Assembly: GCA_020627945.1 (NCBI GenBank)
Contig: JAHDFW010000001.1
Span: forward strand, 5,603 to 69,602
Direction of reading: 5' to 3'
DNA length: 64,000 nt
Origin: Cytophagales bacterium
Lineage (GTDB): Bacteria > Bacteroidota > Bacteroidia > Cytophagales > JAHDFW01
Made by a program: the position numbers and the translations under genes. Position 1 is the stretch's first letter. Every line of letters begins with the position of its first letter. The notes beneath the pieces were generated by a model. The model saw only the letters and a program-made list of their open reading frames with translations, was not told where the DNA came from and did no database searches. Positions 10,928-36,542 of the stretch are shown in pieces.

Positions 10928-13381
10928 ATGAAAAAAATTTTTACGTTTATAACCATTTTGATGACCATGTTTGTTTCGAAAGGACAAAATGTGGTAGAAT
11001 TTAGTTATGATTTGCCTTGGGTTGGATATTCCAATGTATTCGATCATCCAAACGATGGAGGAGGTTATCTTTGGGGTAGTGCTTGGGCCGTAGAAGACTT
11101 GCAGAGCATTGTTGATTCTACAGGTAATAGCCTTACACTCTATCCAAACTTTAGTACTTATTCACAAAACCTTACAGATCCATATTGGGTTAACCAAGTG
11201 TCAGGGGAAGGTAACAAAGTGCTTGAAGCATCTACCTATGTTGAATTTGATTCAACATATAATAACATAGACTTACTCTGGATGGGTAACGTAGAAGAGT
11301 TTACGATTGACACCAGTAAATATAAAGTTAATGTGTTCATTAAAGCTTTGGATCCAAGTAACTTTTGGCAAGATGCTCTTCTTGGATCAAAGACGGTACC
11401 TCTTACAGGTACTGGAAATTTTTCATTAAGTGCTTTAGCTTCGGAGCTGCCTTCTGGTTTGGTTATACAAGTAGGGTTCAATGTTATTGGCCTTAACGCT
11501 GATTCGGCTCTTGCAGGTGTTCTTGGAAACGTAAAAATTGCACCTCCTTCCAATGTTATTGAATTTAACACTAGCGAAAATTGGATTGGATATATGAATG
11601 TATTTGAAGTTCCTTCAAATGGTGGAGCTTTTGCATTTGGAACTGCATGGGGAGTTCAAGATTTAAAATCTACTTTTGATACGGTGTATAACTGTGTAAA
11701 ACTGCAGCCAAACTTTAATACTTATGCCAATAATCCAACCGACCCTTATTGGGTAAATCAAACAACTTTGGAAGGTAATAAAGAAATGGAAGCATCTACC
11801 TATTTAGATTTAGACACTTCTTATAATGGACATGGGTTAGTTTTTGAAGGTTATGTACAGCATCTTACTATAGATACTACTCTTTATGATGTTAACTTTT
11901 TTATCAAAGCACTTGATCCGAGTAATTCTTGGCAAGATGCACTCGGTGGTTCCAAAATAATTCCAATCACCAGCACAGGTTATTTCTCTATTAGTGCAAC
12001 TGCAGCAGAAATGGCTCCAGGTCTTGTACTACAAGTTGGCTTCAATGTAATCGGGACCAATGCCAACCCAGCCGATGAAGCAATGCTTGGTTCAGTAGTC
12101 ATTGGTTCAGGCCCAGACACAGTAGCACCTGTTCCACTAGTAGCATCTCTTCCTGGTTTAATGGATATGTGTCCTATTACGCCAATCGCTCCTAAAGCAC
12201 TTGACAAAGGAGATACTATAGTTGCAACCACGATGACCTCTTTCCCAATTAGTGAACTAGGAACTACGGTTGTTACTTGGACGTACACTGATGGTGCTGG
12301 TAATACTAGCATGCAAAATCAAAATGTAACTATATCTGGAGTTACGAAAATGCTTACAGAAAGTGCTTGTGAAAGTTATATGTCTCCATCTGGTAAGACT
12401 TATACGATGTCCAATACTTACATTGACACCCTAATCGTAGATAATGACTGTGATACGATATATACTATTAATCTAACCATTAATAGTCCGTCGGACACCA
12501 TGCTTACAGAAACGGCGTGTGATAGTTTTTCATTTGCAGGTATAACTAGAACTTCTACGGGTATGTATTATGATACATTGATGAACCAAAATGGTTGTGA
12601 CAGTATTGTTACATTAGATTTAACAATCAATAACTCTGCTTCAACTATGCTAACCATTAGTGCTTGTAATAGCTACGATTTTGGTGGACAAACAATAACC
12701 ATGACGGGTATCTATTACGACACCTTAATGACTTCTACAAATTGCGATAGCATTGTAACGTTAGACTTAACAATCACTACGTTTGTTGAAACTAACTTAA
12801 CGGAAACTGCCTGTGACAGTTATGAATTTGGTGGAGAAACATTAACCATGACTGGCATCTACAGAGATACATTATCTACTGGTGGAGGATGTGACAGTAT
12901 AATTATTCTTGATCTTACTATTAATGGTGCGATGGCAGCAATCACGTTAAATGGTGAAACCCTTGTAGCAGACTCTGCTGAGTCATATGAGTGGTTAGAC
13001 TGTAACAACTCGTTTAATATAATAAGTGGTGAAACTGGGATGAGTTATTCTCCGACAACCTCTGGAAGCTACGCAGTCTTAGTTTATAACAATGGTTGTG
13101 CTGATACTTCTGCTTGTACTGAAGTAATGTTTGATGGAATTGAGGATTTCGAAAATAGTGTAAGAATTTACCCTAATCCAACAAATGGTACAATCAACAT
13201 TGATGTGAGTCAAGCAAATAATGCTACTATTCAGGTAATTAATGCGTTTGGTCAGCTTATTATGACTCAAGACAATGTTGCCACACAGCAACAACTAGAA
13301 ATCGAAGGACCTGCAGGAATATACTTCGTAAAGATCAATAGCGAAGATAAAACGGCAACCTTTAAAGTGACGAAGTACTAA
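10928..13381 (+). CDS. T9SS type A cargo, adhesin-like: 2 x ~190-aa unknown module, Ig/HYR-like domain, 4 x Cys repeats and C-terminal sorting domain
   Basis: It has a signal peptide. There is an internal duplication (residues ~20-210 and ~210-400 align). An HYR-like stretch VVTWTYTDGAGN is present. The C-terminus is YPNPTNGTINIDV...GIYFVKINSEDKTATFKVTKY. It is a paralogue of 38568-39872. Confidence 0.85.
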   Translation: MKKIFTFITILMTMFVSKGQNVVEFSYDLPWVGYSNVFDHPNDGGGYLWGSAWAVEDLQSIVDSTGNSLTLYPNFSTYSQNLTDPYWVNQVSGEGNKVLEASTYVEFDSTYNNIDLLWMGNVEEFTIDTSKYKVNVFIKALDPSNFWQDALLGSKTVPLTGTGNFSLSALASELPSGLVIQVGFNVIGLNADSALAGVLGNVKIAPPSNVIEFNTSENWIGYMNVFEVPSNGGAFAFGTAWGVQDLKSTFDTVYNCVKLQPNFNTYANNPTDPYWVNQTTLEGNKEMEASTYLDLDTSYNGHGLVFEGYVQHLTIDTTLYDVNFFIKALDPSNSWQDALGGSKIIPITSTGYFSISATAAEMAPGLVLQVGFNVIGTNANPADEAMLGSVVIGSGPDTVAPVPLVASLPGLMDMCPITPIAPKALDKGDTIVATTMTSFPISELGTTVVTWTYTDGAGNTSMQNQNVTISGVTKMLTESACESYMSPSGKTYTMSNTYIDTLIVDNDCDTIYTINLTINSPSDTMLTETACDSFSFAGITRTSTGMYYDTLMNQNGCDSIVTLDLTINNSASTMLTISACNSYDFGGQTITMTGIYYDTLMTSTNCDSIVTLDLTITTFVETNLTETACDSYEFGGETLTMTGIYRDTLSTGGGCDSIIILDLTINGAMAAITLNGETLVADSAESYEWLDCNNSFNIISGETGMSYSPTTSGSYAVLVYNNGCADTSACTEVMFDGIEDFENSVRIYPNPTNGTINIDVSQANNATIQVINAFGQLIMTQDNVATQQQLEIEGPAGIYFVKINSEDKTATFKVTKY
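12347..12937 (+). repeat. In-frame tandem coding repeat, 4 copies (150, 147, 147, 147 nt)
   Basis: The units start at 12347, 12497, 12644 and 12791. The consensus is TMLTETACDSYxFGGxTxTMTGIYYDTLxxxxGCDSIVTLDLTIN, with two conserved Cys per unit. Confidence 0.85.
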
Positions 13382-13446: not shown

Positions 13447-13596
13447 TTTCTACCGTTAGAACAAAGTAAAGTTTATGATTGTATAGAAACCAAGGGAAAT
13501 ACAATCGATTAATTGACATCATAATTGGACAATTATATATTATTAAACTTTATATTAATTATATTTAATGCTTTCAAAACTTCCATCGGTCATTTT

Positions 13597-14130
13597 ATGA
13601 AAGGAATTATCCTAAAATCTTATCTTCAACATGTGGAAAACAGCTATGGTATTGAAGTACTTAATTTGGCAATAGATCGCTGCAAACTGGAAAGCGGAGG
13701 GTTGTACATAAACATGCTTACCTACAACGATGAAGAAATCAATTCTTTAATTACAGAAACTTCTTCAATAGTAAATAAATCTGCTAATCAGGTTGAACAA
13801 GAATTCGGAAACCACTTCTTTAACGACTTACTAAATGAATATGGTAGTTATTTCGAGAAATCCAATATGAAGGATTTTATCCACTATTTAAACAACTATA
13901 TACACCCCGAAATTGATTCGTCCATTGATGGAGCAATAACTCCCAAATTTAAACTGGATGAACGTAACGACTATTTTATTTTAACGTATACCAGTGAAAG
14001 AAAAATGTCCTATTTCGCTTTGGGATTACTTTTGGCTTGTAATAATTATTTTGATAATGAATACGAGATCAAATTGTCTGAGATTAGCGGAAAGAATACT
14101 TATTTTGAATTCCATGTATGTCATCAATAG
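13597..14130 (+). CDS. H-NOX (haem NO/O2-binding) sensor protein
   Basis: The protein starts MKGIILKSYLQHVENSYG at the ATG at 13597. A proximal-His context is present (LNNYIHPEI). The haem-propionate motif YxSxR is intact (LTYTSERKMSYFALGLL). The stop overlaps the downstream kinase start by 13 nt. Confidence 0.85.
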   Translation: MKGIILKSYLQHVENSYGIEVLNLAIDRCKLESGGLYINMLTYNDEEINSLITETSSIVNKSANQVEQEFGNHFFNDLLNEYGSYFEKSNMKDFIHYLNNYIHPEIDSSIDGAITPKFKLDERNDYFILTYTSERKMSYFALGLLLACNNYFDNEYEIKLSEISGKNTYFEFHVCHQ

Positions 14131-16478
14131 AGGAGGAATATAGAAAAGCATATCAGCGAGAAAAAAGATATAGAGAAGCTATAGAGCAAATCTTCCATAA
14201 AAAGATTGAAGAACTAACCGCTCAAAACACACAACTTCTTGGAGAAAACGAGCATTATAAGCAGCTTGAATCATTCGAAGCAAACTTTCCCGAAAATTTC
14301 GATTTGACATCGGAAAACCCTTATCCCATAATAAAACTTGACCTCAATCTTAATGTTGTTTATGCTAACACCTCTGGATATCAAATAATAATTGAATATA
14401 ACGGCAACCCGAATACATTCAATATTTTAACCCCAGACCAATTCAACTTCCTACGAAAAGAGCTTCATTTCAGTAAAAAATTACATCTAAAGAAAAGAAT
14501 CTTCGAGCTAAACATTAATCTTTCCAAGAATTCGGAAATTCTAATATTTGCTACGGATATTACCGAAAAAGCAGAAGTAGAATATAAACTAGCTGAGACT
14601 GAAAACACGTATAAAACACTTTTTAAAACCGCTAATGTAATTGTTTACAAAGTTAACTTAGAAGGGAATTTCACACTCATAAACAACAAAACTATTGAAA
14701 TCGTCGAGTATTCGGAATTGGAGTTGTTAAATATGAATTTCATCAATCTTGTTCATCCGGATTCCAGGCGAACTGTTCTTTTACATTATCTCAAGCTAAT
14801 TAGAAGTCGCACCAAATCAAGTTATTTGGAATTCAGATTACTTACCAAATCTGGAAAATCTATTTGGGTGGGGCAAAGTGTTACTCTAAAATTCATGGGC
14901 AATGAATTCACTGAAGCTATTGCCGTTGCTAGAGATATCACTGAGGTAAAAATCAATGAAATAGCATTAAAAAACAGTGAGGAAAAATATCGTAAGACAA
15001 TAGAAAATTTGCATTTCGGACTAATGGAAGTAGATACCAATGAGCATATCCAAAAAGTAAATAATGCTATGATCGATCTTACGGGGTATACCGAAGAAGA
15101 ACTTATAGGCAAGCAACCCTTCCAGTTCCTTCTAACTGATGAATCCAAAAGAGTAATGGAAGAACAAATTACTAACCGCTCTAAAGGAAATTCGAATGCT
15201 TACGAGGTTCAACTAAAACGTAAAGATGGAGCATTACGTTGGGCTATGATTTCGGGAACACCAATATATGATGAAAATAATATAATGATTGGTTCACTAG
15301 GTATCCATGTGGATATTACCGATCAAAAAGAGACGGTAAGCAATTTAAGAATCGCTGAAAACAAAGCTTTGGAATCTTTAAAATCGAAAGAAATTTTCCT
15401 TGCAAAAATGAGTCATGAACTGCGCACACCTTTGAACGCAATTCTTGGATTCTCCGAAATAATCCAAAACAATTATCCTGATAATGTAGAACTCAAAAAT
15501 CAAATTAACCCAGTTTATACTTCTGCTCAGCATTTGCTGAATTTAGTAAACGATTTATTAGACTTCACTAAGTTGAATCAAAGTAAGATCAAACTGGAAA
15601 AGATAGGATTTGATATTTGCAAACTCTCAAAAGAGGTAGAAAATCTATTCAAACAGCCAGCAAACCAGAAAAACATTCAGTTGATTTTCAATTTACCTGA
15701 GAATTCACCTTTCGTTTCTGGAGACCCTACAAGAATAAGACAGATCATCACCAACCTTGTTAGCAACTCTATTAAATTCACACAAGATGGCTATGTGAAA
15801 TTCCACTTAAGCTACGAATCCAAAGGCGATCAAGTTGTGACAAAAATTATGGTTGAAGACTCAGGAATTGGAATAAAACCAGAAAACTTAGAGCGAATTT
15901 TCAAAGAGTTTGAACAAGAAGACATTGGAACAACAAGAAATTTTGGTGGTACTGGGTTGGGTTTACCTATCGTAAAAGGTTTGGTAGATGCTATGAATGG
16001 TTCAATAAAAATACGAAGTGAGTTTGGCTCAGGAACTACGGTTGAGCTTATCATTCCACTACATAAAGCAACAACTCCAAGCGAGAAAACTGTAAGTGAA
16101 GAAATAAACGACCCAAATCAACTACATGGGCATAAAGTTTTAGTTGTAGACGATCACCCATTTAACTTAATGTTGGCGCAGAATATGTTAGAAGCGTTTA
16201 ACGCAGTGCCGACAGTCGTAAGCAGTGGAATTGAAGCAATAGATCGCATTGAAGAAAATTTCGACGTAGTTTTAATGGATATTGAAATGCCTGAAATGAA
16301 CGGGATTGAAACTACAGAAATTATTAAAAGAACTACTCCTAACCTTCCTGTAATTGCAGTTACCGCGGACCTAGTCGGAGGGCATGCTGCTAAAAAAGAT
16401 TTGTTTTCAGGGTTTCTAGCTAAACCTTATAGTGCTGTTGAATTGTACAACATAATAGCCAAAGTTACCCTACAGTAA
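14118..16478 (+). CDS. Hybrid sensor histidine kinase (coiled-coil, PAS repeats, HisKA, HATPase_c, C-terminal REC)
   Basis: H-box MSHELRTPLNAILGFSE. N-box ITNLVSNSIKFT. G-boxes DSGIGI and GGTGLGLPIVK. The receiver is KVLVVDDHPFN...VLMDIEMPEMNG...IAVTAD...LAKP. PAS-like segments are seen (ARDITE, GIHVDITDQK). Confidence 0.9.
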   Translation: MSSIEEEYRKAYQREKRYREAIEQIFHKKIEELTAQNTQLLGENEHYKQLESFEANFPENFDLTSENPYPIIKLDLNLNVVYANTSGYQIIIEYNGNPNTFNILTPDQFNFLRKELHFSKKLHLKKRIFELNINLSKNSEILIFATDITEKAEVEYKLAETENTYKTLFKTANVIVYKVNLEGNFTLINNKTIEIVEYSELELLNMNFINLVHPDSRRTVLLHYLKLIRSRTKSSYLEFRLLTKSGKSIWVGQSVTLKFMGNEFTEAIAVARDITEVKINEIALKNSEEKYRKTIENLHFGLMEVDTNEHIQKVNNAMIDLTGYTEEELIGKQPFQFLLTDESKRVMEEQITNRSKGNSNAYEVQLKRKDGALRWAMISGTPIYDENNIMIGSLGIHVDITDQKETVSNLRIAENKALESLKSKEIFLAKMSHELRTPLNAILGFSEIIQNNYPDNVELKNQINPVYTSAQHLLNLVNDLLDFTKLNQSKIKLEKIGFDICKLSKEVENLFKQPANQKNIQLIFNLPENSPFVSGDPTRIRQIITNLVSNSIKFTQDGYVKFHLSYESKGDQVVTKIMVEDSGIGIKPENLERIFKEFEQEDIGTTRNFGGTGLGLPIVKGLVDAMNGSIKIRSEFGSGTTVELIIPLHKATTPSEKTVSEEINDPNQLHGHKVLVVDDHPFNLMLAQNMLEAFNAVPTVVSSGIEAIDRIEENFDVVLMDIEMPEMNGIETTEIIKRTTPNLPVIAVTADLVGGHAAKKDLFSGFLAKPYSAVELYNIIAKVTLQ

Positions 16479-16623
16479 CCCCTTCTACAAGTTTCTAATT
16501 TGGACAAATTCTCTAAATGAGAATTAAAGATCCGACAAAAACAGTCCTAGTTATGTCTATTAACACATTTAGACATCTGACATGAAATTTGCACTATTAT
16601 TACTTAAAAATAGGATTAAAAAT

Positions 16624-17067
16624 ATGAGAACAGTAATAATAGATGATGACCCGTTTTTCGCAGAGGTATTGGCACAAAAGCTCCGTTCTTTTGGACTTAG
16701 CACTGTTAAAATAGTTTCTAATTTGGACGAGTTAAAAAGAGCAAAAACTAAACCTGAAGTTTTCTTTATTGACTATCATTTAAAACGAGGGAACTGTAAT
16801 AAGTTGATAAGGTATATTGAAAAACAACACTATTCATCCAGTATTATTGTAATGAGTGCCAATAGCAATGCACCTAAGCTACTTGAATCTAAGAATCGTT
16901 ATTATTTCTTTCCTAAATCGAAATTCAGATACCTCAAGTACCAGATATATGATATCAAAGAAAATATTCTGAGAAGACAAAAGGCACAAAACTACATAAA
17001 GGCCATCTATTTTTCCATCATAATAGCAGTAATCTACTTTTGCTTATATTGGTTAATAAATAGTTAA
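16624..17067 (+). CDS. Single-domain response-regulator receiver with C-terminal transmembrane anchor (REC-TM)
   Basis: The receiver residues are present: MRTVIIDDD, FFIDYHL (phospho-Asp), IVMSA and FFPKS. A basic or coiled segment and a terminal TM helix (AIYFSIIIAVIYFCLYWLI) follow. An alternative ATG lies at 16582. There is no output domain. Confidence 0.7.
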   Translation: MRTVIIDDDPFFAEVLAQKLRSFGLSTVKIVSNLDELKRAKTKPEVFFIDYHLKRGNCNKLIRYIEKQHYSSSIIVMSANSNAPKLLESKNRYYFFPKSKFRYLKYQIYDIKENILRRQKAQNYIKAIYFSIIIAVIYFCLYWLINS

Positions 17068-17076
17068 AGTGAGTTC

Positions 17077-17107
17077 GGGATAAGAATTTTATCTGAGTTC
17101 TTATCCC
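17077..17107. terminator. Hairpin between convergent genes (possible bidirectional terminator)
   Basis: A perfect 10-bp stem pairs GGGATAAGAA with TTCTTATCCC, with an 11-nt loop. It sits between the stop at 17067 (+) and the stop at 17164 (-). Confidence 0.55.
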
Positions 17108-17163
17108 TAACCCACGCTAGTTAACTAATTCCTGCAATTCTGGTTGACATACCAGTCTTATTC

Positions 17164-18366
17164 CTATTCTTCATAAAACATTTGAGAATGCTTTTGATGT
17201 GCTAACCCTAAGCTAATCAGCTTGCTATAACTAACCTCCGAAAGCTTACTCCAAACCGAAGTTTTTCTATACTGATAATCAAACATATAGATTAAACTTG
17301 CATATTTCTGGGCAATAACTTCCCAGGTATAACGTCTCATCGCAATTAATTTAAGCTGCTCTCCAAGGACTAACCGTTGCTTATAGGTGTATTGTTGAAG
17401 AAGGGATTTTAGATGAACGGCGTCCTTGAAGAAAACAGCTATATTTTCAGTGGTGGCTCTATTATATGAAACATCGTATGCAAAAATGGGCAACCCTAAA
17501 TACATGGCTTCTACTAGAGAAGGATTTGTACCTCCTGCACTATGTCCATGTATATATAATTGGCAATTACCTCTTAGTAAATCTAATTCACGCTGGTCAT
17601 AAATTGGATCTAATAAAACAATATTTTGGGAGTTGGAATAATCTAAGAAAAGTGCTTCTCCATACGGGCTTGCCGACCAATTACCGACAACTACAATCGG
17701 CATTTCAGAATGTTTATGAAATGCTTCTAATATCACGTGCACGTTATTTTCTGGCTCAATTCGACAAACCTTAAACGCATAAGGTCGTTTTAAAAAATCA
17801 TACTTTTCAAGATCTTCATTCGTAGGCTGAGTTGACATGACATGATCTGCCCCATATTCGATTAGGTGACTTAGGGTCTTATAATTAATAGCCGTATATT
17901 TTTTTATTGCGATGTTATCCGTAATGTCAGCATCGGAAAACTTAACGGCAAGAAACTCCGAAATTTTAAGGAACTTTTGAATAGGCTTGCTCCATTTCTG
18001 ACGTCTCCATTCCAAACCATCTATATTAATAATTATCTTCTTGGAAGTAAACAGCTTCACCAAGGGCAAGATAATACCCCCAGACACTCCTAATACCAGC
18101 AAAGTGTCCGCATAAAACAAAGCATGCAGGATAGAAAGAATATCATAGAGAATACTTGAAGCACCATTTGCATTTAATGGAAGATGAAACAAGCGTGCAC
18201 CCTTCCAGTACTTTTTTCTTTCTGCTTTAGGATAATATTTATTGCTGCAATAGACGTAAAGGTCGAATTCCAGACTTAACTGATTTACTAAGTGATGAAC
18301 CAATGTCTCAAAACCTCCATATCTTGCAGGTACACCTGCAGTTCCAATAATTGCTACTTTTCTCAT
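17164..18366 (-). CDS. Glycosyltransferase with DUF1972 N-terminal domain (GT4-like)
   Basis: The N-terminus MRKVAIIGTAGVPARYGGFETLVHHL is the DUF1972 signature. The C-terminal GT1/GT4 region contains GGTNPSLVEAMYLGLPIFAYD. Confidence 0.8.
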   Translation of the reverse strand: MRKVAIIGTAGVPARYGGFETLVHHLVNQLSLEFDLYVYCSNKYYPKAERKKYWKGARLFHLPLNANGASSILYDILSILHALFYADTLLVLGVSGGIILPLVKLFTSKKIIINIDGLEWRRQKWSKPIQKFLKISEFLAVKFSDADITDNIAIKKYTAINYKTLSHLIEYGADHVMSTQPTNEDLEKYDFLKRPYAFKVCRIEPENNVHVILEAFHKHSEMPIVVVGNWSASPYGEALFLDYSNSQNIVLLDPIYDQRELDLLRGNCQLYIHGHSAGGTNPSLVEAMYLGLPIFAYDVSYNRATTENIAVFFKDAVHLKSLLQQYTYKQRLVLGEQLKLIAMRRYTWEVIAQKYASLIYMFDYQYRKTSVWSKLSEVSYSKLISLGLAHQKHSQMFYEE

Positions 18367-18478
18367 ATCCCTTTATTATTACTTTAGGCCAATTTTATTC
18401 CAACAAGCATAACTACTGATTATCTGCACTTTACAAAAACAAATCTCTAAATCCATTCTCAAATCGAGACTCATTTAC

Positions 18479-19594
18479 TCAAATCTGCACTGAGCTTCGA
18501 TCAAATACAACACCTAAAATATTTTTACTAAAAGTGGAAAAGTCAAATTCTCCTGAACGCAACTTAGACATAGAAGAAAACCTTCTATACAAAGACTGAT
18601 TTACCATTAGGTTAAAAACTACCTTTTCCAGCTTACTTGAATTTCGACTATCCACACACTGACCAAACAAATTGTCTCCAACGAGTTCTTTAACACCTCC
18701 TACTGGCGGTACAACTACCGGAATTCCATAGCTCATAGCTTCCAAAACTGTCATTCCAAATGTCTCTACCCATTCATCTGGTTTTGATAAATTAAGCACC
18801 ACACTTGCCCGTTTATAAAACCGATGAACATCATTTTGAGCAGGGTAAATAAAAAGGTTCTCGGGAAGATCCTTCCCTGCAAAAAAGAAATCTAACTCAT
18901 TTCGGGATGCATTTAACACCAATTCAAATTTCATATATGGAAACGTAAAGGCTAGATTTACAAACTCATTGACCCCCTTATATCCTTTTAGCGAACACAA
19001 CATTAGCACATAAAAATCTCCTCTTCTAGTAGCTAAATGATTTCTACTTTTATTAAAAAACTCTGGGGAAAGACAGTTATATACTACTTTATTATTCACC
19101 TTTTTTAGCGCTTCATGTTGCAACGCATATTTGGAAACGTAAACTGCCGTGCTCGCACAATAGTTAGCCACTAACTTTAAAAACCATTTAAACATTAGAG
19201 GTCGTATTGATGTTTCATGAATATGATAAACCACCTTCTTATTCATAAACTTTCCAGCGAGCGCCGCTCCAAAAGGAAGCAGCGTATTCACATAAATAAT
19301 TACATCTTCATTTCGATATGAAAAGAGCTTAAAAAACAATTGAAACTGACTAATCAACAAGTTGATGAAAGTAACGAGCTTAAAACGCTCACTTCTTCGA
19401 TAATCAAAATAATTAAGATCAGCTTCTTTTATGTCAGATAAGAAACCTCCATGCCGACTCTTTGAGGTAAACACCTGGACTGGCACTTGCTTATCCAACA
19501 AACTTTTTATCACGTAGGAACCTACTTTAGGGCTACCACTATAATCATCTTTTAAATGTGCAAATAGAACTTTAGGAGTCGATATATTCATCAT
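18479..19594 (-). CDS. Glycosyltransferase family 4
   Basis: The EX7E-type motif region is ETFGMTVLEAMSYGIPVVVPPVGGVKELV. The fold length is GT-B-like. Confidence 0.8.
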   Translation of the reverse strand: MMNISTPKVLFAHLKDDYSGSPKVGSYVIKSLLDKQVPVQVFTSKSRHGGFLSDIKEADLNYFDYRRSERFKLVTFINLLISQFQLFFKLFSYRNEDVIIYVNTLLPFGAALAGKFMNKKVVYHIHETSIRPLMFKWFLKLVANYCASTAVYVSKYALQHEALKKVNNKVVYNCLSPEFFNKSRNHLATRRGDFYVLMLCSLKGYKGVNEFVNLAFTFPYMKFELVLNASRNELDFFFAGKDLPENLFIYPAQNDVHRFYKRASVVLNLSKPDEWVETFGMTVLEAMSYGIPVVVPPVGGVKELVGDNLFGQCVDSRNSSKLEKVVFNLMVNQSLYRRFSSMSKLRSGEFDFSTFSKNILGVVFDRSSVQI

Positions 19595-19615
19595 TTTTTG
19601 ATTTATGCTAAATGG

Positions 19616-20884
19616 TTAAACAATGGGTTGTGGAACTTCAGAACGGAAAAGAGATTGATAAACAGAAGACAACAATTCTCCTCTCACATTCCATTCAAAA
19701 TTTTGAGTAAACAAAGCTTTGGAAGATTTTGAGTAACGTTCAAGCTCCCATCGATTTCTGTATAAACAATTTAAAGAAGTCGAAAACTGATTTATACACC
19801 TATGATATTGACTATAGGGAACTTTTACTCCAACATCGCTGGTAACAAACTCTCCAGGGCCGTAATTGTCAAAACAAAGAATTGGAAGTCCTGCAGACAT
19901 GGCTTCGGCTACGACCATTCCTGCTCCTTCATGGGACGGAAATAAAAAAACATGTGAATTACTGTAAATTTGCTTAAGTTCTTCCCTTTTAACCCATGAT
20001 ATAATTGTAATCGCGTCCTCCAGCTGCATTTCCGAGATAAGTTTACGCAACTTAGGCTCTTCAGGACCTTTACCCACCAACGTTAGATGTGGCCGTTTAC
20101 TACTTCGGCCGTTTACCACACCGTTATAAAACTTAGCAAATGCCTTAATAGTAATATCAAAGCCCTTAAGCGGCACAAATCGCCCTACAGAAAGTACATG
20201 AAACTCAGCTTTCGTAGAAGTGGAAGTGGATGCTGCCATACTATCAGAAGCTACAGATGGCATCCGAATTTCCTTCTCGCCTATGTTATAGATCTTATCC
20301 TTTACAGAGGAATTCATCGTAAGAATGACATCTGAGTTCAATTTGGTAAGCCAAAGTAGCGGACTAATCTTCCATGCATAACACTTAACCATCCACTTAA
20401 GACGATCTTGTATGTACGTTTTCATTCCATAAATCGGAAGAACAAATGCTTTAGGAATTTTCGGATGATGACCTATCGGTCCCCAAACTTTAGGTTTTCG
20501 TAGCAACCAAAGAAATGAAGGAGTCCAATCATTATGAAAGTTTAGATTATGAACAATATCAAACCTAAGATTCGATGATTTAACTTTCGCAATTAAGAAA
20601 AGTTGCCAAAAAAAGTAATAAACTAATGCACCTCTCTCTCCTTTTTTCCAAAACCTCATCCAGTATGGCAAATCAAAATAAACAAAACTCATGGAAGCAT
20701 ATAGCGAACTAGGATGCTCCTTCATATATTTTTCAATATGCTCTCTATTATTTTTGCGGGTTAACAATATTACGTTTTGAAATCTAGCAATCTGTAAAGC
20801 AAAATTCCAACCCATACCATCTTCTGATCCTTTGAATGGATTCATGGCATATGCCGTAGCTAAAACCGTTATTTTATGATTCAT
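19616..20884 (-). CDS. Glycosyltransferase family 4
   Basis: The sequence contains PSHEGAGMVVAEAMSAGLPILCFDNYGPGEFV. The length is GT-B-like. Confidence 0.8.
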   Translation of the reverse strand: MNHKITVLATAYAMNPFKGSEDGMGWNFALQIARFQNVILLTRKNNREHIEKYMKEHPSSLYASMSFVYFDLPYWMRFWKKGERGALVYYFFWQLFLIAKVKSSNLRFDIVHNLNFHNDWTPSFLWLLRKPKVWGPIGHHPKIPKAFVLPIYGMKTYIQDRLKWMVKCYAWKISPLLWLTKLNSDVILTMNSSVKDKIYNIGEKEIRMPSVASDSMAASTSTSTKAEFHVLSVGRFVPLKGFDITIKAFAKFYNGVVNGRSSKRPHLTLVGKGPEEPKLRKLISEMQLEDAITIISWVKREELKQIYSNSHVFLFPSHEGAGMVVAEAMSAGLPILCFDNYGPGEFVTSDVGVKVPYSQYHRCINQFSTSLNCLYRNRWELERYSKSSKALFTQNFEWNVRGELLSSVYQSLFRSEVPQPIV

Positions 20885-20908
20885 TAAATTCTTATTATTG
20901 GTTAATAC

Positions 20909-21625
20909 TTATGCCGCGTTCGACACACTGGCAATCTGTGCACGGTCTTTTATTACCTTGGCTGGCACACCTGCTATCACTGAATAAGCAGGCATAGACT
21001 GAGTCACCACGGCTCCTGCTGCAATCACACAGCCTTCACCTATAGTTACTCCGTCCAAAATGGTAACTTTTGATCCTACCCAACAGTTTCCGCCTATCTT
21101 AATTCCTTTTCTTATGGTCCCCTGATATCTTATTGGTGTCTTTAGGTCACTGAATTGATGATTTTCGGGGTGACAACTGAAATATTGCCCCACAATACAA
21201 TCATTGCCAATTTCTAATCCTCCTGCTCCTCCTAAATAAGCATACTCACCTATACCTACATTGTCCCCAATCTTTATAAATTCTCCAATACTGTTGAATG
21301 ATGTAGAAACGATAAGCCTACAAAAAGCTCCAACACCAACATTATCTCCGATTATAATACCTTTTTTACCGAGCGCACTGAGATGAGTAAACTCCCCTAT
21401 TTTAACCATGTTCCCCATGGTGATTTTTGACTTATGAAATAGCCTAACTCCCCTTTCTAAAAAAATCAGATTGAATTGCTTATTGTAAATCATCATTCTA
21501 ATTCCTCGCAGTAAGCATCGGCTCTGATGCACGGTCAAATTAAAAATCATTGTGATGTCCACGGATGGATCAAATTCAAATTGAGGGTTTCTCAAGCGTA
21601 TTATTCTTTGAATAATTTTCTTCAT
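20909..21625 (-). CDS. Hexapeptide-repeat (LbH) O-acetyltransferase
   Basis: It has repeated [LIV]G-x4 hexapeptides (IGDNVGVGAF, IGDNVGIGEYA, IGNDCIVGQ, IGGNCWVGSKVTILDGVTIGEGCVIAAGAVV). Confidence 0.8.
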   Translation of the reverse strand: MKKIIQRIIRLRNPQFEFDPSVDITMIFNLTVHQSRCLLRGIRMMIYNKQFNLIFLERGVRLFHKSKITMGNMVKIGEFTHLSALGKKGIIIGDNVGVGAFCRLIVSTSFNSIGEFIKIGDNVGIGEYAYLGGAGGLEIGNDCIVGQYFSCHPENHQFSDLKTPIRYQGTIRKGIKIGGNCWVGSKVTILDGVTIGEGCVIAAGAVVTQSMPAYSVIAGVPAKVIKDRAQIASVSNAA

Positions 21626-21670
21626 TGTAATCTTGGTAATAAGGTTGTAGTTAAATTCTTAATGCATTAC

Positions 21671-24409
21671 TTATGCTGCTCTGGAAAACTCTTTCATTAT
21701 AAACTGAAGAGTACGATTCAACTCGATATTTTCCAATGCCACAAAACGTGATTTGCCATATTTTTTGTCAAATTCTCGGAACAAGCTGATGTACCTTTTA
21801 TTTAACTTATCAATAGTGTTTGCGTTCAACTCCTTCTTTCTTCGTTGAATTACAGATGCCGACGCATGTAGAAAAACATTTAATCTCGGCTTAAGAAGAA
21901 TCCTAAATAGTCCTTTGGGCAAAATTTGAGGTAGTACTATATTGGACCTCTTGGAATCGTTTATAAAATCATAGTAATAGCGATCATAAATCACGATATA
22001 CCCAAACATCACGTACTTAAAAAACACGTAGAACTGACCGAAAAAATAGTCGATAAAATAATATGAGAAACGAAATAATGAACCTACAATACTTTGATTA
22101 GTCCCCATTCTTGGCAACCGTTTAGCGGCAAGACTTTCAGCTCTCTCCTTCCCTTTTGTATACGAACTAAGGATGGGTATTAAAGAAGGTCTGTGACGAA
22201 GTACAACTACCTTACGGCGGTACTTTTGAGCCACTTTTACTTTAAGTTTATCAATAACGGTAGATTTGCCCGCACCATCTACTCCACTTACGGTAATAAT
22301 AAATCCAAGGTTGTGTCGAAATTCAATAGCCTTATCTATGACATGCAGAACAAAGTTCACTCCTCGTCTAAACAAATTATTGCGTTTATAAGTATTTATC
22401 CTCTTGGCAACTTTTGCATGCTTAAATTTAGAATAACGACAAAGGCTAGATATACATTCACTCGGCAGCAAATATCTACCCTGAATGTATTTTGCGATTC
22501 TAACTTTTTCGAAAAAATTAAGGCGTCCAAAATAGACTTGGTATTTGTGAGGAACCGAAGCCCCGTTTAGAAGATAAAACAGGAATATATACTCAAAATC
22601 CATTTTCACATCAGGAACCATAATTCCTGCTTTATTTGGTCTTGCTGCAATCAACAGCCTATAAGAATCAAGATAAGTTGTTGTCTTTCGCTTAAAACGG
22701 TGAATTAAGTCTACACTTAAAAAACTTCCATCTCGAAAAAACAACTCCACTTTGGTCATATAAGATAAGGCCTGAACAAAATGCTTTTCAACCGTCGATT
22801 TACTAGTGAGGTAAGCCACCATGGACTGTAAATCCTCCTTACAAACCAACACATCCAAATCAGATGACTCTTTAATGGCCTTAAGTTCGTACTCTGTAAA
22901 CTTAAGTACTGCATAACGTTTATTCTTAATCCGTTCTATAAACGATGAAATTGCTTCCTGACGATTGGATTTATCGGCTTTTATAGATAAAACATCAAGC
23001 AACGCTTCTTCCCAAACCTCGAAAAGCCAGTCTACTTGTGTATGCAGTTTTTCTTGTCTTAAATAAACATTGAGGTAATGACTTATGTTAATAGCTAGGT
23101 AAAGTGATAAATGTAATTGAACATCAATCCCATAAGAGACTATAACTTGGTGTACTTCAGGTAGTGACAATGCACGATTAAGATCATTCTTAATCTTTTT
23201 ATAAGAATCACGTTTAACCAAAATACCAGTCTGAAATACAAAATGAAAAAGATCATACAGCAAAGGCTTCGCTGGATCACCATTTTCCCAATCAACAACT
23301 GCCAATGCTTCTTTATCTATAAAACAATTCCAAGGAGTAAAGTCACCATGAGCAAAAGCCAAAGGAATACTTGCGGTTGTATCAATAGAATCTAAAACCT
23401 GATTTAGCAAAGCATCCAATCTCTTAAACTTTCCAATGACTTGATAATGCTTTCTTACGCTATTCTCAATCCCACACTTTACTAAAAATTTGGTCTCTTG
23501 AATATCTTCATATGATACTTCAATTTCATATAAATTGCGTAACGCTTTAATGTGATATTGACCGAACTCCATACTTCGCTTGGACTTTGGAGATCGTACA
23601 TTTGAGCTACACAATACACTTCTATGGTCCCAAGTAATATTCTTAGGAAGAATCAAATCTTTCAGGTCTTCCTGATTCAGCTCATCTAACATTTTTGCCT
23701 CTTGCTCCACTAACTCAAAAGATTTACCACGAAGTGGAATTTTAAGATAACTCATGGTATTTCGACCATCGTTGAGTTCCACTATTGCCTTACGATCTGG
23801 ATTAGGAGTCCCTAAAAACAAAGAATAAGAACTTGCGTGTAAAGACTTTATAAGCTTATCTAAAGACAGGTTCCCTTTATGATAAATAGTAAAAGTGCCA
23901 TCAGCTAAAAATGTTCTTAAGGGAGTTCTAAAGATATTCCTGAATACAAACTCTTTAATTTTGTCCTTCTTGGTTAACGAACTATAAAAATTCAAAAACG
24001 TAGCTCTTTTTAATGAGACTGGATATACCCATCTTAACGATCCGTCAGGATTGGTCAAATAACGAAAACTAGTAGATTGATAATTCTTCAGCCCCTTTCC
24101 TTTATTAGTTAGATCGATGATGTAATCTACTGAATCCTGTAAAGTTGAAGGTTCTCCACATTCAACTATTAAAGTAATTAACTCACCTTCATTGGCTACT
24201 TGAATTTCATTAACACAAGACAACCAAATCAAACGTATCTTTTCTCTACTAACGTTTTCATTTGAAGTCGAAAAAAACAGTTCCGATAAAAGTTGAAGAT
24301 CATTTTTTGGAATCATATTATTTAGCTTTGATATAAGTTTTATTCTACTCATACAAGAACCAAGAACATACCACATTGACAATTCGACTCTAAATGCACG
24401 TATAGACAC
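21671..24409 (-). CDS. Tri-domain protein: APH/choline-kinase-like phosphotransferase, NTP_transf_5-like nucleotidyltransferase and dTMP-kinase-like P-loop domain
   Basis: FAHGDFTPWNCFIDKEALAVVDWENGD (H354-D356 and DWE) is the kinase catalytic signature. SSDLDVLVCKEDL...LSVDLIHRF (D517-x-D519) is the nucleotidyltransferase-like signature. ITVSGVDGAGKST (around residues 706-716) plus DRYYYD is thymidylate-kinase-like. The start is uncertain: GTG at 24409, or ATG at 24376, 24352 or 24316. Confidence 0.7.
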   Translation of the reverse strand: MSIRAFRVELSMWYVLGSCMSRIKLISKLNNMIPKNDLQLLSELFFSTSNENVSREKIRLIWLSCVNEIQVANEGELITLIVECGEPSTLQDSVDYIIDLTNKGKGLKNYQSTSFRYLTNPDGSLRWVYPVSLKRATFLNFYSSLTKKDKIKEFVFRNIFRTPLRTFLADGTFTIYHKGNLSLDKLIKSLHASSYSLFLGTPNPDRKAIVELNDGRNTMSYLKIPLRGKSFELVEQEAKMLDELNQEDLKDLILPKNITWDHRSVLCSSNVRSPKSKRSMEFGQYHIKALRNLYEIEVSYEDIQETKFLVKCGIENSVRKHYQVIGKFKRLDALLNQVLDSIDTTASIPLAFAHGDFTPWNCFIDKEALAVVDWENGDPAKPLLYDLFHFVFQTGILVKRDSYKKIKNDLNRALSLPEVHQVIVSYGIDVQLHLSLYLAINISHYLNVYLRQEKLHTQVDWLFEVWEEALLDVLSIKADKSNRQEAISSFIERIKNKRYAVLKFTEYELKAIKESSDLDVLVCKEDLQSMVAYLTSKSTVEKHFVQALSYMTKVELFFRDGSFLSVDLIHRFKRKTTTYLDSYRLLIAARPNKAGIMVPDVKMDFEYIFLFYLLNGASVPHKYQVYFGRLNFFEKVRIAKYIQGRYLLPSECISSLCRYSKFKHAKVAKRINTYKRNNLFRRGVNFVLHVIDKAIEFRHNLGFIITVSGVDGAGKSTVIDKLKVKVAQKYRRKVVVLRHRPSLIPILSSYTKGKERAESLAAKRLPRMGTNQSIVGSLFRFSYYFIDYFFGQFYVFFKYVMFGYIVIYDRYYYDFINDSKRSNIVLPQILPKGLFRILLKPRLNVFLHASASVIQRRKKELNANTIDKLNKRYISLFREFDKKYGKSRFVALENIELNRTLQFIMKEFSRAA

Positions 24410-24459
24410 ATTTAGATATTAGTATGCTTTAAAATTTTCTCTATAAGAAACTAGGATTC

Positions 24460-25749
24460 TCAATTAGACACTCGAGCAATTTCTGGAAATCTACCCGAAA
24501 TCGTTAATTGAAGTTTTTGAGAAGATGTGAATACAGGGCTATATTTTATAGTATTCATCCATATAAGAATTTGATAAAAAAGGATCCCAAAATTAGTTTC
24601 ACCAAAAATTCCAAATTCAGTAAATGAATTAATTAAAATGGGGATGTAAATTCCTATAAAAGTCATTCTAACTATGCGATCATCAGACTTTAGATGCGCT
24701 CTTAGGGTAAAAATCATTTGAAAAACAACTATTGCTAAACCGATAAACCCGAGATTCATAAGCACCTGAATAAATGTATTATGTGTCATATGCCCCTCAT
24801 AGGTATGAACACTTTTAAATGCTCCAGTCCAGGAAATTCTCATAAACCCAAATCCGTACCAAGGAGATTTCTCTAATCCTTCGGTTAATAATGCTTTCCA
24901 AAAAGGCAAACGCCCTGTCATACTCAGCACCTCATCCAAGTCTCCTTGCTTTATAAAAATGAAACGAATTATCACTGGAATTGCTAATCCCATTCCAGCA
25001 TAAACCAAAAATTTCAAACTGGACTTACCTAGTTTATTGACAAACAGAAAAACAACTAAAAGCAACCCAATCATCGATGACCTGGAACCAGTCATTATTA
25101 ACGCATATAATATTACAGCGGCAAACAACAAGGTTCTCCATTTATATCTGGATTCGTTCCAGTACACCAATGCACATCCAATCCCCACAACTGCCAACAT
25201 ACCTAGCTCATTTGGGTTCATTAAGATTCCTCCCAATCTCGCAACCTCACCACCGTGAGTTAGACGAAAAAAAGTATCAGGATCAATGTACATACCAATG
25301 ACGAAAATCAGTAACACCCAAAATATCGAATAAAACAAACAGTGACTTATGGAGAGAGGAGTTTCAGCGTGATAAAAATTAAACCTTACAATGGTTTTTA
25401 TAAGGAAATATGCAAACACTAAGCTTTCAAGATCCATAACCAACTGCAACGTGGAATATCCTACGTCGGTAGACCAAAGCAAAGAAACAACTCCCATAAA
25501 TAAATAGGCGCCGTATAAAATTGGTGATAGCGTATTTTGATAGGAGAAATTCTTAAGTAAACCTTTGTTCCCCAAACTTTGATATACTAAAATCAACCAA
25601 CCCAATGTCCCCATTCGAAGAAGAATTTTTAGTACCCGCGTAATCAGAATATTCTCTGAAATAGTGAAAAAACCCACTATTTGCAATAAAAGTATCAGAG
25701 TGAGAAGTCGACCAAATTTGGATCTATTTATTGATGCTTTGCTCTTCAT
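24460..25749 (-). CDS. O-antigen polymerase/ligase family membrane protein (Wzy-like)
   Basis: It has about 10-12 TM helices. A Wzy_C-like loop is present (IMTGSRSSMIGLLLVVF). A large periplasmic loop follows. Confidence 0.75.
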   Translation of the reverse strand: MKSKASINRSKFGRLLTLILLLQIVGFFTISENILITRVLKILLRMGTLGWLILVYQSLGNKGLLKNFSYQNTLSPILYGAYLFMGVVSLLWSTDVGYSTLQLVMDLESLVFAYFLIKTIVRFNFYHAETPLSISHCLFYSIFWVLLIFVIGMYIDPDTFFRLTHGGEVARLGGILMNPNELGMLAVVGIGCALVYWNESRYKWRTLLFAAVILYALIMTGSRSSMIGLLLVVFLFVNKLGKSSLKFLVYAGMGLAIPVIIRFIFIKQGDLDEVLSMTGRLPFWKALLTEGLEKSPWYGFGFMRISWTGAFKSVHTYEGHMTHNTFIQVLMNLGFIGLAIVVFQMIFTLRAHLKSDDRIVRMTFIGIYIPILINSFTEFGIFGETNFGILFYQILIWMNTIKYSPVFTSSQKLQLTISGRFPEIARVSN

Positions 25750-25757
25750 GGATAGTT

Positions 25758-26870
25758 CTATTTCTCATAAACTTGGATTAGAGCTTCTGATATTTTATTC
25801 CAGTCAAACTGCTCAAAAACCATTTCAATGGCATTGGAACCCAAGGTATGGATGGTCTGATTTTCATGTAGTTGTTCAATCTTCAACATGGATTGGCAAA
25901 TGGTCTCTTCATTGTTTTCGATTAGAGGAATTCCCGCCTCATAGTCTCCAATATAATCTGCCATATTACTTGCTTTGCTTACAACACATGGAATTCCCAA
26001 ACTAGCCGCCTCCAATACGGCCCCCGGTAATCCTTCATTTCTGGATGGGTGATAAAACGCATCCATTTCACACAATAGATTATGTTTGTCCAAACCGAAT
26101 TGAGCACCATGAAAATGCACAAAGTTCTCCACACCCAAATCTGTAGCAAGCTTCATTAATTCTGTTAAATCTTTTCCATCTCCAATGATCGAAAGTCGAC
26201 CCGTACCATGATGCTTTTTCTTATACCTAGAGAACCCCTTCATTAAGAGATCAAGACCTTTTGTTTCAATATCTATTCTCCCACAAAACCCCATTATAAG
26301 TGAGCCATTCGTATATAAGTGACGGGTCGTAAAGTTCGAAATTTGCTGTCCATTGGGAATTAATACACTGTCTGTATTATAATTCAAGATCTTAAACGAA
26401 TCTACTTCACTTTGACCTATACAATGAATCGCTTTTGCCCTGTTAATAATAGATGACTCAACCACAGAAAGGTACAATCTCTTCAACCATTTATTCTTTT
26501 GAAGCGCTTTTGAATTATAAGCGCCATGTGGTGTGAAAAGAAATTCAATGCCCGCTTTAGTTAGCAATTCTGCCGCCACAAAAAATTCAGGTATAAATCC
26601 TCCATGAAGATGAAAAACAGCTCTTTCTTTAATCATAAGGATTTGTTTTTTTAATTCCTTATCGATCGTCCATTTCAACTTTGAGGACTGAAACAAAGAA
26701 GTAGCATAGTTTCTCTCAGGATAATTGTGAATCGGGTTTGGTGTAATTCCCCAGACTTGCACATCATAACCTAAACTGAACTGATGAGTAGCTAAGTTGT
26801 GCACTACTTTGTTTACCCCATTCATACGAAAAGGGTTTGCCTTACCTAAGATTAGATGGATAATTTTCAT
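25758..26870 (-). CDS. Glycosyltransferase family 4
   Basis: The sequence contains PSRNEGLPGAVLEAASLGIPCVVSKASNMADYI. The start overlaps the upstream gene stop by 4 nt. Confidence 0.85.
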   Translation of the reverse strand: MKIIHLILGKANPFRMNGVNKVVHNLATHQFSLGYDVQVWGITPNPIHNYPERNYATSLFQSSKLKWTIDKELKKQILMIKERAVFHLHGGFIPEFFVAAELLTKAGIEFLFTPHGAYNSKALQKNKWLKRLYLSVVESSIINRAKAIHCIGQSEVDSFKILNYNTDSVLIPNGQQISNFTTRHLYTNGSLIMGFCGRIDIETKGLDLLMKGFSRYKKKHHGTGRLSIIGDGKDLTELMKLATDLGVENFVHFHGAQFGLDKHNLLCEMDAFYHPSRNEGLPGAVLEAASLGIPCVVSKASNMADYIGDYEAGIPLIENNEETICQSMLKIEQLHENQTIHTLGSNAIEMVFEQFDWNKISEALIQVYEK

Positions 26871-30398: not shown

Positions 30399-30403
30399 TC
30401 GGT

Positions 30404-31147
30404 TTATCTATTAATAAGTGAAACAAGAATTGCTATAGCCGTGGCTACACTTGTAAATGGAATAAGAGTCGGTGCTTTTTTATCTATTACTTTTCCTCCT
30501 CTACATGGTATATAAATAACATCATTTGGGTATATCAAAATAGGGGCTCCGCTTTGAATTTTGGTTAAATCAAACGTCATCAAACTATCTCCGCGCCTAA
30601 TAGTGGCTTTCTTCTTATTTGCATAAAATGTAAGTCCTCCACTTTTAGAAAGGGCTTCCATCAAAGTGTTTTTTTCTTTTTCAAGAAGTAGGGTGCCAGG
30701 GTTATTTACCTCGCCTAAAACAGACACTTCCTTGTTCAAAACCTTCACCACAATAATGGGCTCTACTAAGTATTTTGAATAATACCTGGTTAATGTATCT
30801 GCTGCCTCGCGTTCAGTTAGGTGTTCAATCGAAACTCTACCTATCTTTGGGAGCATAATTTGTCCTTTTGAATCCACCATCACCCATTTTCCATATACCT
30901 CATTCGAATTATAAATCCCAAAAAGGGATCCTATGCTCATTTCGTCATTCCCCCAGATACTTACGCTAACCTTGTCATCAACTGAAATTTTATAATTACA
31001 GAATGATGAATCACTTTGCAAAACACTAACGGGAGAATAGTTGCGATTTGCTTCAAATAGGTTTTGAGTTCGACAAGAAAAAAGGCTAAAGGCCAATAAT
31101 AAGATTATCAAACGTAAACTATAGGTCGTTAATTTATCTCGCATCAT
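30404..31147 (-). CDS. Polysaccharide export outer-membrane protein (Wza-like: Poly_export + SLBB)
   Basis: It has a lipoprotein-like signal (LLAFSLFSC). The pattern YKISVDDKVSVSIWGNDE...GQIMLPKIGRVSIEHLTEREA...VSVLGEVNNPG is typical of Poly_export/SLBB domains. Confidence 0.8.
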   Translation of the reverse strand: MMRDKLTTYSLRLIILLLAFSLFSCRTQNLFEANRNYSPVSVLQSDSSFCNYKISVDDKVSVSIWGNDEMSIGSLFGIYNSNEVYGKWVMVDSKGQIMLPKIGRVSIEHLTEREAADTLTRYYSKYLVEPIIVVKVLNKEVSVLGEVNNPGTLLLEKEKNTLMEALSKSGGLTFYANKKKATIRRGDSLMTFDLTKIQSGAPILIYPNDVIYIPCRGGKVIDKKAPTLIPFTSVATAIAILVSLINR

Positions 31148-31708: not shown

Positions 31709-31788
31709 TTCATTACACATCTCAACAACAAAACTTATGTCCAGAAAAGAAACTGTTTTCTCGATTTGAGAAAACAAGGGTGATTGGT

Positions 31789-31841
31789 AATTAAATAAAA
31801 ACTCCAAAGACTCGAAGTGTAAACCTTGTCGTCTTTGGAGT
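31789..31841 (-). terminator. Rho-independent terminator after the Hpt gene
   Basis: A perfect 11-bp stem pairs ACTCCAAAGAC with GTCTTTGGAGT, with a 19-nt loop. On the minus strand it is followed by TTTTATTTAA. Confidence 0.65.
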
Positions 31842-36529: not shown

Positions 36530-36542
36530 TGTTATCTGTAAG

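Follow-up and report, generated by a model that had tools for sequence, protein, structure and literature searches.

The window analysed here, a stretch of 64,000 nucleotides from a Cytophagales bacterium (GenBank assembly GCA_020627945.1, contig JAHDFW010000001.1, positions 5,603 to 69,602 of the forward strand), encodes two small proteins, REC-TM1 and REC-TM2, in which a receiver (REC) domain is followed by a single C-terminal transmembrane (TM) helix. An exopolysaccharide (EPS) operon begins with REC-TM2, its first cistron, and the genes that follow encode a Wza-like export lipoprotein and a Wzc-like co-polymerase. The proteins on which the argument turns are listed below.

31151-31639, minus strand: REC-TM2, tail-anchored receiver of 162 aa, EPS operon cistron 1; REC at about aa 9-110, basic linker helix at aa 110-141, TM helix at aa 142-160 (nt 31160-31216)
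30404-31147, minus strand: Wza-like outer-membrane polysaccharide export lipoprotein of 247 aa; Poly_export and SLBB domains, lipobox LFSC, C-terminal hydrophobic helix
28119-30398, minus strand: Wzc-like co-polymerase of 759 aa; Wzz and GNVR, two TM helices, divergent P-loop domain
16624-17067, plus strand: REC-TM1, tail-anchored receiver of 147 aa from a rare divergent clade; last gene after those for H-NOX and a hybrid histidine kinase (HK)
17002-17058, plus strand: TM helix of REC-TM1 (aa 127-145)

Receivers with a C-terminal membrane helix

REC-TM2 contains PF00072 as its only Pfam domain (63.1 bits against a cut-off of 30.2). D14, D57, S86 and K108 are invariant in an alignment of 33 family members, as are Q88 and the stretch G101-A102-x-D104-Y105. 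The AlphaFold2 (AF2) model has a (βα)5 fold in which α5 runs unbroken to the C-terminus (residues 110-161; pLDDT 94.9), and its top Foldseek matches are the receivers of NtrX, NtrC1 and PhoB (TM-score 0.84-0.90 on target). TM helices were called from KD19 hydropathy peaks, which for REC-TM2 gives a value of 3.14 at aa 142-160 of 162, with six Lys/Arg within the 15 residues ahead of the helix and two residues after it. The TAA stop codon is followed by GTC and then by the ATG of the Wza-like gene, leaving a gap of 3 nt.

REC-TM1 likewise matches PF00072 alone, at 34.0 bits against the cut-off of 30.2, with profile positions 2-86 of 111 covered. Eleven relatives keep D8/D9, D50 and S78 with little or no variation; the Lys, K98 or K100 behind β5, could be assigned from the AF2 topology only, because the Pfam match ends at position 86. 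The model again shows (βα)5 with α5 unbroken to the C-terminus (residues 98-146; pLDDT 90.6), and the KD19 peak of 2.36 lies at aa 127-145 of 147, preceded by five Lys/Arg within 15 residues and followed by two residues. An alternative upstream ATG at 16582 would lengthen the protein to 161 aa, but the start at 16624 is supported because the two closest homologs (P0108, P0109) begin MRT/MKT-VIIDDD. The usual Lys-Pro is missing from both proteins, and NCBIfam holds no specific model for either. Both tails fit an N-in, tail-anchored topology with predicted membrane insertion, and a hydrophobic tail is retained in homologs at 38-55% identity while its sequence is not conserved, which argues that the tail is more than chance.

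The initial annotation of this DNA had read both ORFs (147 and 162 aa) as complete, output-less receivers with one C-terminal TM helix, and the Pfam matches, conserved residues, KD19 peaks and AF2 models, both of which carry α5 of the receiver fold on into the TM helix, bear this out. It had also paired the two proteins through their shared architecture, which holds, whereas close kinship does not: they are 22% identical (E 0.16), recent paralogy is ruled out, and on the hidden Markov model (HMM) of the REC-TM2 family, built without the window sequence, REC-TM1 scores 40.6 bits and is a non-member, REC-TM2 itself reaching 176 bits. The two belong to different clades of common architecture with no recent shared ancestry. 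An exhaustive HMMER search of 1.84 billion representatives returned only two close relatives of REC-TM1 (49% and 38% identity), both of which are a REC domain with a C-terminal TM helix, and several weaker matches of 144-160 aa share this architecture. For the one close homolog whose DNA was available the contig measures 970 nt, and no gene context was recovered for any of these relatives. REC-TM1 starts 146 nt after the hybrid HK gene and so occupies the slot behind the kinase that the wza-linked receiver has in relatives, but by sequence it is not that ortholog. The sequence TGACATGAAATTTGCA at 16578-16593 (+), 31 nt ahead of the REC-TM1 start, resembles a sigma-54 -24/-12 element; GA replaces the critical GG, and the match is not above chance in the window.

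The Wzc-like protein has a Wzz/GNVR periplasmic domain between its two TM helices and retains both a Walker A sequence (GMEKEGKT at 571) and DLVIIDLP. Compared with solved Wzc structures, its periplasmic and TM parts match at E 2e-20, while the kinase-domain stretch reaches 1.9 bits. The initial annotation had noted that it lacks the usual Tyr-rich tail, and this observation both stands and extends to the family described below: a single Tyr is found among the last 30 residues, and TIGR01007 gives 28 bits against a cut-off of 108. A bacterial tyrosine (BY) kinase combines a Walker A/A'/B kinase domain with a C-terminal Tyr cluster, and the window Wzc does not show this combination.

The wza-linked receiver family of Bacteroidota

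A database search with REC-TM2 returned approximately 85 proteins from Bacteroidota, 130-180 aa long; a terminal TM helix is present in about 55 of them, and the best matches in species-representative genomes are 42-46% identical. The family is recognised by SGQ after β4, GAFDYxxK at β5, a length of 140-170 aa and a C-terminal membrane-targeting end, all of which REC-TM2 has. Synteny was followed by a scan of species-representative genomes, seeded by a narrower alignment than the one of 33 sequences, and then by an ORF and phmmer script; the loci of relatives in genomes and metagenomes carry L-numbers as labels in this analysis. About 25 genome loci encode REC, Wza and Wzc, usually with NtrC ahead, sometimes H-NOX, and a hybrid HK. 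The recurring order on one strand is an NtrC-like activator, in some cases H-NOX, a hybrid HK of about 1000 aa, the small REC, Wza and Wzc, and its carriers include Flavobacterium, Chryseobacterium, Hymenobacter, Neolewinella, Saprospiraceae, Chitinophagaceae and Labilibaculum. The distance from the REC stop to the wza start in these genome loci is 2-90 nt, or the genes overlap.

The association was also examined in the reciprocal direction, starting from the Wza subfamily (signature GIYNSNEVYGKW) in metagenomic loci with at least 500 nt of upstream sequence (n=59). A small REC lies directly upstream of wza in 53 of these and is fused to Wza in one, which together make 54/59 or 92%; in the 53 unfused loci the spacing is a few to about 70 nt, or the genes overlap. 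The small receiver is thus a near-obligate first gene of this type of exporter. The initial annotation had proposed that a receiver with a C-terminal TM helix might be sought beside wza/wzc; the link to wza/wzc proves much stronger than the window alone could reveal, while the TM helix fails as the defining feature, as the 54 receivers end in a TM helix in 16 cases, in a short amphipathic tail in 37 and in the fusion in one.

The amphipathic tails follow the pattern P/G-ΦΦxKΦΦSxΦ, as in PGLIKRLLSIF, NPTFIQKIFGVF and GFRKFFSIFF. Those such as PGLIKRLLSIF and NPTFIQKIFGVF are about 11 residues long and stand after a helix breaker at the extreme C-terminus. Their mean helical hydrophobic moment is 0.51 compared with 0.30 for the rest of the protein, a value similar to that of the E. 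coli MinD membrane-targeting sequence. In-frame REC-Wza fusions of 394-422 aa are found at L013:9995-11179, L019:498-1706, L032:2538-3728 and L162:3479-4747, and in these the amphipathic motif passes directly into the Wza signal peptide and lipobox. The fusions of L019 and L032 differ substantially in sequence, which makes an assembly error unlikely. Cleavage of such fusions by signal peptidase II would give a REC-TM product and a mature Wza. Judged from these sequences, membrane targeting rather than the TM helix appears to be the conserved property, served by three interchangeable endings of which the amphipathic one is the commonest, and their common denominator would be that each brings a receiver to the inner membrane next to Wza and Wzc.

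A decayed form of the locus occurs in several samples (L001:8001-8711, also L002 and L003), where a REC and the Wza signal peptide are joined to an N-terminal Wza fragment. It continues with a 79-aa remnant of a family 4 glycosyltransferase (GT4), the remaining EPS operon being lost; further upstream, the genes for the NtrC-like protein and the HNOBA-hybrid HK have stayed intact.

The closest metagenomic loci have the order H-NOX, HK, REC-TM, Wza, Wzc. The order HNOB-HK-REC-Wza is found at L086, L091, L095, L098, L099 and L100, and at L151 the order is HK-REC, Hpt, a gap, REC-TM and Wza, as in the window. Four relatives of the TM type were checked singly and all four resemble the window in carrying REC-TM, Wza, Wzc, a flippase-like protein and GT4 and/or Wzy; the window's order of flippase-like protein, GT4 and Wzy recurs at L085, L086 and L088.

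The degeneration of Wzc is a family trait. Among 40 family Wzc proteins (window 28119-30398; L004-L037, L091-L170) four have a Tyr cluster and 13 a Walker A of the form GK[ST]. Those that accompany a TM-type receiver keep Walker A in 8/10 cases, against 5/29 with an amphipathic one and 0/1 with a fused one. Most Wzc-like proteins of these loci look like pseudokinases, as far as their motifs tell.

It is scarcely credible that these proteins are an artefact, with tails hydrophobic by chance or ORFs that are truncated annotations of longer known regulators, the latter a possibility that the initial annotation had raised. Automated pipelines do label some homologs as NtrC-, OmpR- or FixJ-family regulators, but more than 100 independent contigs encode proteins of 141-167 aa whose stop codon comes directly before wza, the tails are conserved in kind and AF2 is confident over the whole chain. 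The artefact reading is refuted by the comparative data. No curated family or publication on Bacteroidota wza-linked receivers was found in Pfam/NCBIfam or in the literature on membrane-anchored or C-terminal-TM response regulators and on Flavobacterium wza/wzc with NtrC/sigma-54, in agreement with the earlier remark that the architecture is not a commonly described class.

A proposed phosphorelay with a possible output at the membrane

The genes and elements from which a relay to REC-TM2 may be drawn lie on either side of the EPS operon:

13525-14130, plus strand: H-NOX (HNOB) haem gas-sensor protein, overlapping the start of the HK gene
14118-16478, plus strand: soluble hybrid HK with PAS, HisKA, HATPase_c and REC, no Hpt domain and no TM helix
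17069-17115, no strand assigned: inverted repeat (18-nt arms) lying where REC-TM1 and the final EPS gene converge
31754-31842, minus strand: two perfect inverted repeats between Hpt and REC-TM2, one with 12-nt arms and a T-run, the other with 9-nt arms and a T-rich run
31891-32235, minus strand: stand-alone Hpt (PF01627, 28.3 bits)
32232-32633, minus strand: REC133, a third single-domain receiver of 133 aa, unanchored, its stop codon overlapping the Hpt start codon
32765-34123, minus strand: NtrC-like sigma-54 enhancer-binding response regulator

The Hpt protein is the likely phosphate donor to the receivers. REC133 scores 25.3 bits, under the Pfam cut-off, with DxD, Asp and Lys at the expected places. 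Aside from the receivers with a TM helix, all signalling proteins of the window are soluble by hydropathy. The receiver of REC-TM2 is 39% identical to that of the NtrC-like protein (E 1e-20), which on the family HMM scores 115 bits whereas the other three receivers of the window score 34-41 bits. The two are paralogs, and this likeness suggests that they probably listen to the same donor. The repeats at 31754-31842 are terminator-like and appear to part the Hpt transcript from the EPS operon; these two hairpins and the tight gene spacing downstream of REC-TM2 uphold the earlier placement of REC-TM2 as EPS operon cistron 1, with its stop codon 3 nt before wza. The repeat at 17069-17115 is likely to be a bidirectional terminator.

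In 18 of 24 relatives a sigma-54-type element, TGGC-N7-TnG, stands 40-70 nt ahead of the small REC, against 0.07 expected per region. At L014, L020, L022-L024, L028-L030, L033 and L034 the sigma-54-like element reads TTGGCTTaACTtTAGC or TTGGCATCAAATTGG. A palindrome, TTTCCAnATTTTGGAAA, is found further upstream in Flavobacterium, the element and palindrome together spanning 40-130 nt ahead of the small REC, and the NtrC-like activator may bind at this palindrome. The H-NOX/hybrid HK pair also precedes REC-wza-wzc in marine metagenomic relatives (L091, L095, L098-L100), and the linkage suggests gas-regulated EPS production in Bacteroidota.

We propose, with a probability of roughly 0.45, that REC-TM2 is a membrane-targeted terminal receiver of the phosphorelay which acts post-translationally on the Wzc/Wza machine. 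H-NOX would sense a diatomic gas and modulate the soluble hybrid HK, from which phosphate would pass through the kinase's own REC to the stand-alone Hpt and on to two paralogous receivers, the NtrC-like enhancer-binding protein as the transcriptional output and REC-TM2 as the output at the membrane. REC-TM2 would be made together with the Wza/Wzc machine and act at the cytoplasmic face of the inner membrane, N-in and held some 30 helical residues below the bilayer on its continuous α5-TM helix. Phosphorylation would alter the α4-β5-α5 face, in which Y105 and K108 are invariant. The receiver would most likely act on the kinase-like cytoplasmic part of Wzc because, of the two universal neighbours, Wzc has a sizeable cytoplasmic domain while Wza is periplasmic. 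REC-TM1 is another tail-anchored receiver, specific to this lineage and encoded with H-NOX and the HK, and is probably fed by the same relay. A more far-reaching form of the proposal, in our view rather doubtful, is that in much of the Bacteroidota a His-Asp phosphorelay took over the job of Tyr autophosphorylation in classical Wzc systems, and that the receiver is a stoichiometric subunit of a Wza/pseudokinase-Wzc machine that gates Wzc assembly, polymerisation and export on the H-NOX gas signal. As a subunit it would relay its phosphorylation state via the α4-β5-α5 face and, in the TM type, along the α5-TM helix in a kind of 'inside-out' signalling.

Several observations weigh against a direct action of the receiver on the export machine. 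REC is absent from 5/59 of the Wza loci, and the amphipathic tails might serve to bind proteins instead of anchoring the receiver to the membrane. As Wza is periplasmic, the REC-Wza fusions show co-expression and not contact with the REC domain. Searches with the consensus and with the TGGC-N7-TnG motif found no sigma-54 element upstream of REC-TM2 in the window, where the consensus search gave 23 matches in total against 23.2 expected. Labilibaculum (L026) and a few metagenomic loci keep Walker A, the Tyr cluster and REC, so REC is not simply a replacement of the BY-kinase switch. Lastly, more distant REC-TM proteins follow a hybrid HK and Hpt with no EPS genes nearby, and a further one sits beside two REC-HKs, which implies that the architecture is broader than EPS control.

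Tail-anchored receivers are therefore a broader, unstudied theme in Bacteroidota. At L087:4880-7528 and L090:4113-6537 a three-gene unit encodes a hybrid HK, Hpt and a REC-TM protein of 175-178 aa, no EPS genes being near; the unit of L090 adjoins genes for SpoIIE/PP2C, DUF6272 and SiaC.

Such units also speak for the main rival to direct control, a phosphate sink, which the initial annotation had put forward beside modulation of the Wza/Wzc machine and which we consider rather unlikely. Having no target of its own, REC-TM2 would provide negative feedback by draining Hpt, thereby damping or time-limiting the activation of the NtrC-like regulator, with REC-TM1 and REC133 as further sinks. Its paralogy with the NtrC-like receiver fits this, as do its place as first gene of an operon that this activator would switch on, the sigma-54-type promoter ahead of the small REC in most relatives, and the clustering in the window of three receivers that lack an output with a single Hpt. 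Where HK and Hpt are soluble, however, a sink has no evident need of a membrane anchor, yet three forms of it are kept; in 92% of loci the gene is fixed beside wza instead of being placed at random in the regulon; and the Y105 aromatic switch and the α4-β5 motif GAFDY are invariant, as expected of an output surface. Those same invariant switch residues, together with the phospho-acceptor, speak against a membrane scaffold, in which the tethered receiver would recruit Hpt or the hybrid HK to the export machine, thereby localising the signalling, and phosphorylation would be secondary. Although the remaining relay parts are all soluble and the AF2 model carries the receiver on a long rigid helix, both of which would suit a scaffold, nothing at the membrane is known to require the kinase, and we regard this explanation as very unlikely.

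Direct control might also be exerted on a component other than Wzc, and here the remainder of the EPS operon (17164-28126, minus strand) has to be considered:

26867-28126, minus strand: flippase-like protein with 11 TM helices
25758-26870, minus strand: GT4
24460-25749, minus strand: Wzy_C polymerase
21671-24409, minus strand: 912-aa APH/P-loop-like protein
20909-21625, minus strand: hexapeptide acyltransferase
17164-20884, minus strand: three family 1 glycosyltransferases (GT1)

The phosphorylated receiver could bind an initiating phosphoglycosyl transferase (PGT), the Wzx flippase or the Wzy polymerase, as EpsW~P does in stimulating the PGT EpsZ of Myxococcus (PMC12802240), and genes for a flippase-like protein and Wzy do accompany REC-Wza-Wzc in TM-type loci. 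We hold this to be improbable. Pfam and NCBIfam recognise no PGT domain in the ORFs of 17164-31147, it is Wza and Wzc that are universally conserved as neighbours whereas the genes further downstream vary, and EpsW is soluble and fed by a CheA-type kinase.

The 912-aa protein shows weak matches to an aminoglycoside-phosphotransferase-type kinase fold and to a P-loop segment resembling dTMP or APS kinase, and may phosphorylate or sulfate the polysaccharide. A VWA/YfbK-family protein and an extracytoplasmic function (ECF) sigma factor are encoded just upstream of the NtrC-like gene (34367-37076, minus strand). Upstream of H-NOX lies a gene (10928-13381, plus strand) for an 817-aa protein with a C-terminal sorting domain of the type IX secretion system, which together with a GC content of 35.8% fits a Bacteroidota origin.

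Comparison with known receivers and export systems

The switching of Wzx/Wzy machines is understood mainly via the Wzc Tyr-phosphorylation cycle of Proteobacteria. The exporters described here resemble the Wzc/Wzb group 1 capsule systems of E. coli and Klebsiella (Wzc structures 7NHR and 9R62) in the Wzz/GNVR domain, the two TM helices, the P-loop-type domain and the Wza-type partner. In contrast to the Wzc BY-kinase, the window protein has no Tyr cluster, nor do 36/40 family members, Walker A is lost in 27/40, and it is a His-Asp receiver that takes the regulatory position. In a large group of Bacteroidota exporters (Flavobacterium, Chryseobacterium, Hymenobacter, Chitinophagaceae, Saprospiraceae and marine relatives) the Tyr switch has been lost and a small membrane-targeted receiver is almost always the first gene.

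Like CheY, DivK, CpdR and SdrG, the receivers have a (βα)5 fold with conserved Asp, Ser and Lys and an aromatic switch residue, and the output of the CheY type is protein-protein contact. Those four proteins are soluble and diffuse to their targets, whereas here α5 leads into a TM helix or an amphipathic tail. The amphipathic tails are presumably akin to the C-terminal membrane-targeting sequences of MinD and FtsA, with membrane binding predicted in the present case; unlike in MinD and FtsA the tail is carried by a receiver and not an ATPase, and in the clade of the window a full TM helix takes its place. A receiver joined to a membrane anchor has a precedent in archaea, where some response regulators carry MetOD3, a rare output domain anchored in the membrane (PMC5847659), although these are confined to one or two methanogen genera, have very few members and are unrelated in sequence and context.

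H-NOX/HnoK and HahK phosphorelays control biofilm formation in Shewanella, Vibrio and Pseudoalteromonas (PMC8738867). As in those relays, H-NOX is co-transcribed with an HK, an Hpt would serve several receivers, and the output would concern matrix or biofilm. The outputs of H-NOX/HnoK are c-di-GMP enzymes or quorum-sensing regulators, whereas here the relay would end in a sigma-54 activator and in a receiver that is tethered to the membrane and encoded with Wza and Wzc. If direct control is true, H-NOX gas sensing would be linked to matrix export without c-di-GMP, and a function would be found for 'orphan' receivers now mislabelled as DNA-binding regulators.

The closest precedent is EpsW-EpsZ of Myxococcus xanthus, where the phosphorylated single-domain regulator EpsW activates EPS synthesis post-translationally by binding a membrane enzyme, the PGT EpsZ (PMC12802240); Bacteroidota, Wzc and a membrane anchor go unmentioned in that paper. 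Like EpsW, REC-TM2 is a stand-alone receiver encoded in an EPS locus with no DNA-binding output, and its phosphorylated form is proposed to contact a membrane component of the Wzx/Wzy pathway. The Myxococcus regulator is a soluble protein with input from the CheA-like DifE, and its target is a large monotopic PGT. Features of the Bacteroidota family, by contrast, are a membrane-targeting end of its own, a module of H-NOX, hybrid HK, Hpt and NtrC, constant adjacency to wza-wzc and the lack of a PGT in the operon; REC-TM2 itself has a TM helix, and the kinase encoded nearby is a hybrid HK of the HisKA type, the Hpt being a protein apart. Control of an EPS machine by a single-domain receiver is therefore known, and what the present family adds, with good support from the comparative data, is built-in membrane targeting and a new partner, by a mechanism that we infer. 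Together the TM helix, the amphipathic tail and the Wza fusion form a natural set of variants with which the role of membrane proximity can be probed, and if direct control is true the EpsW principle would extend to another phylum and another target.

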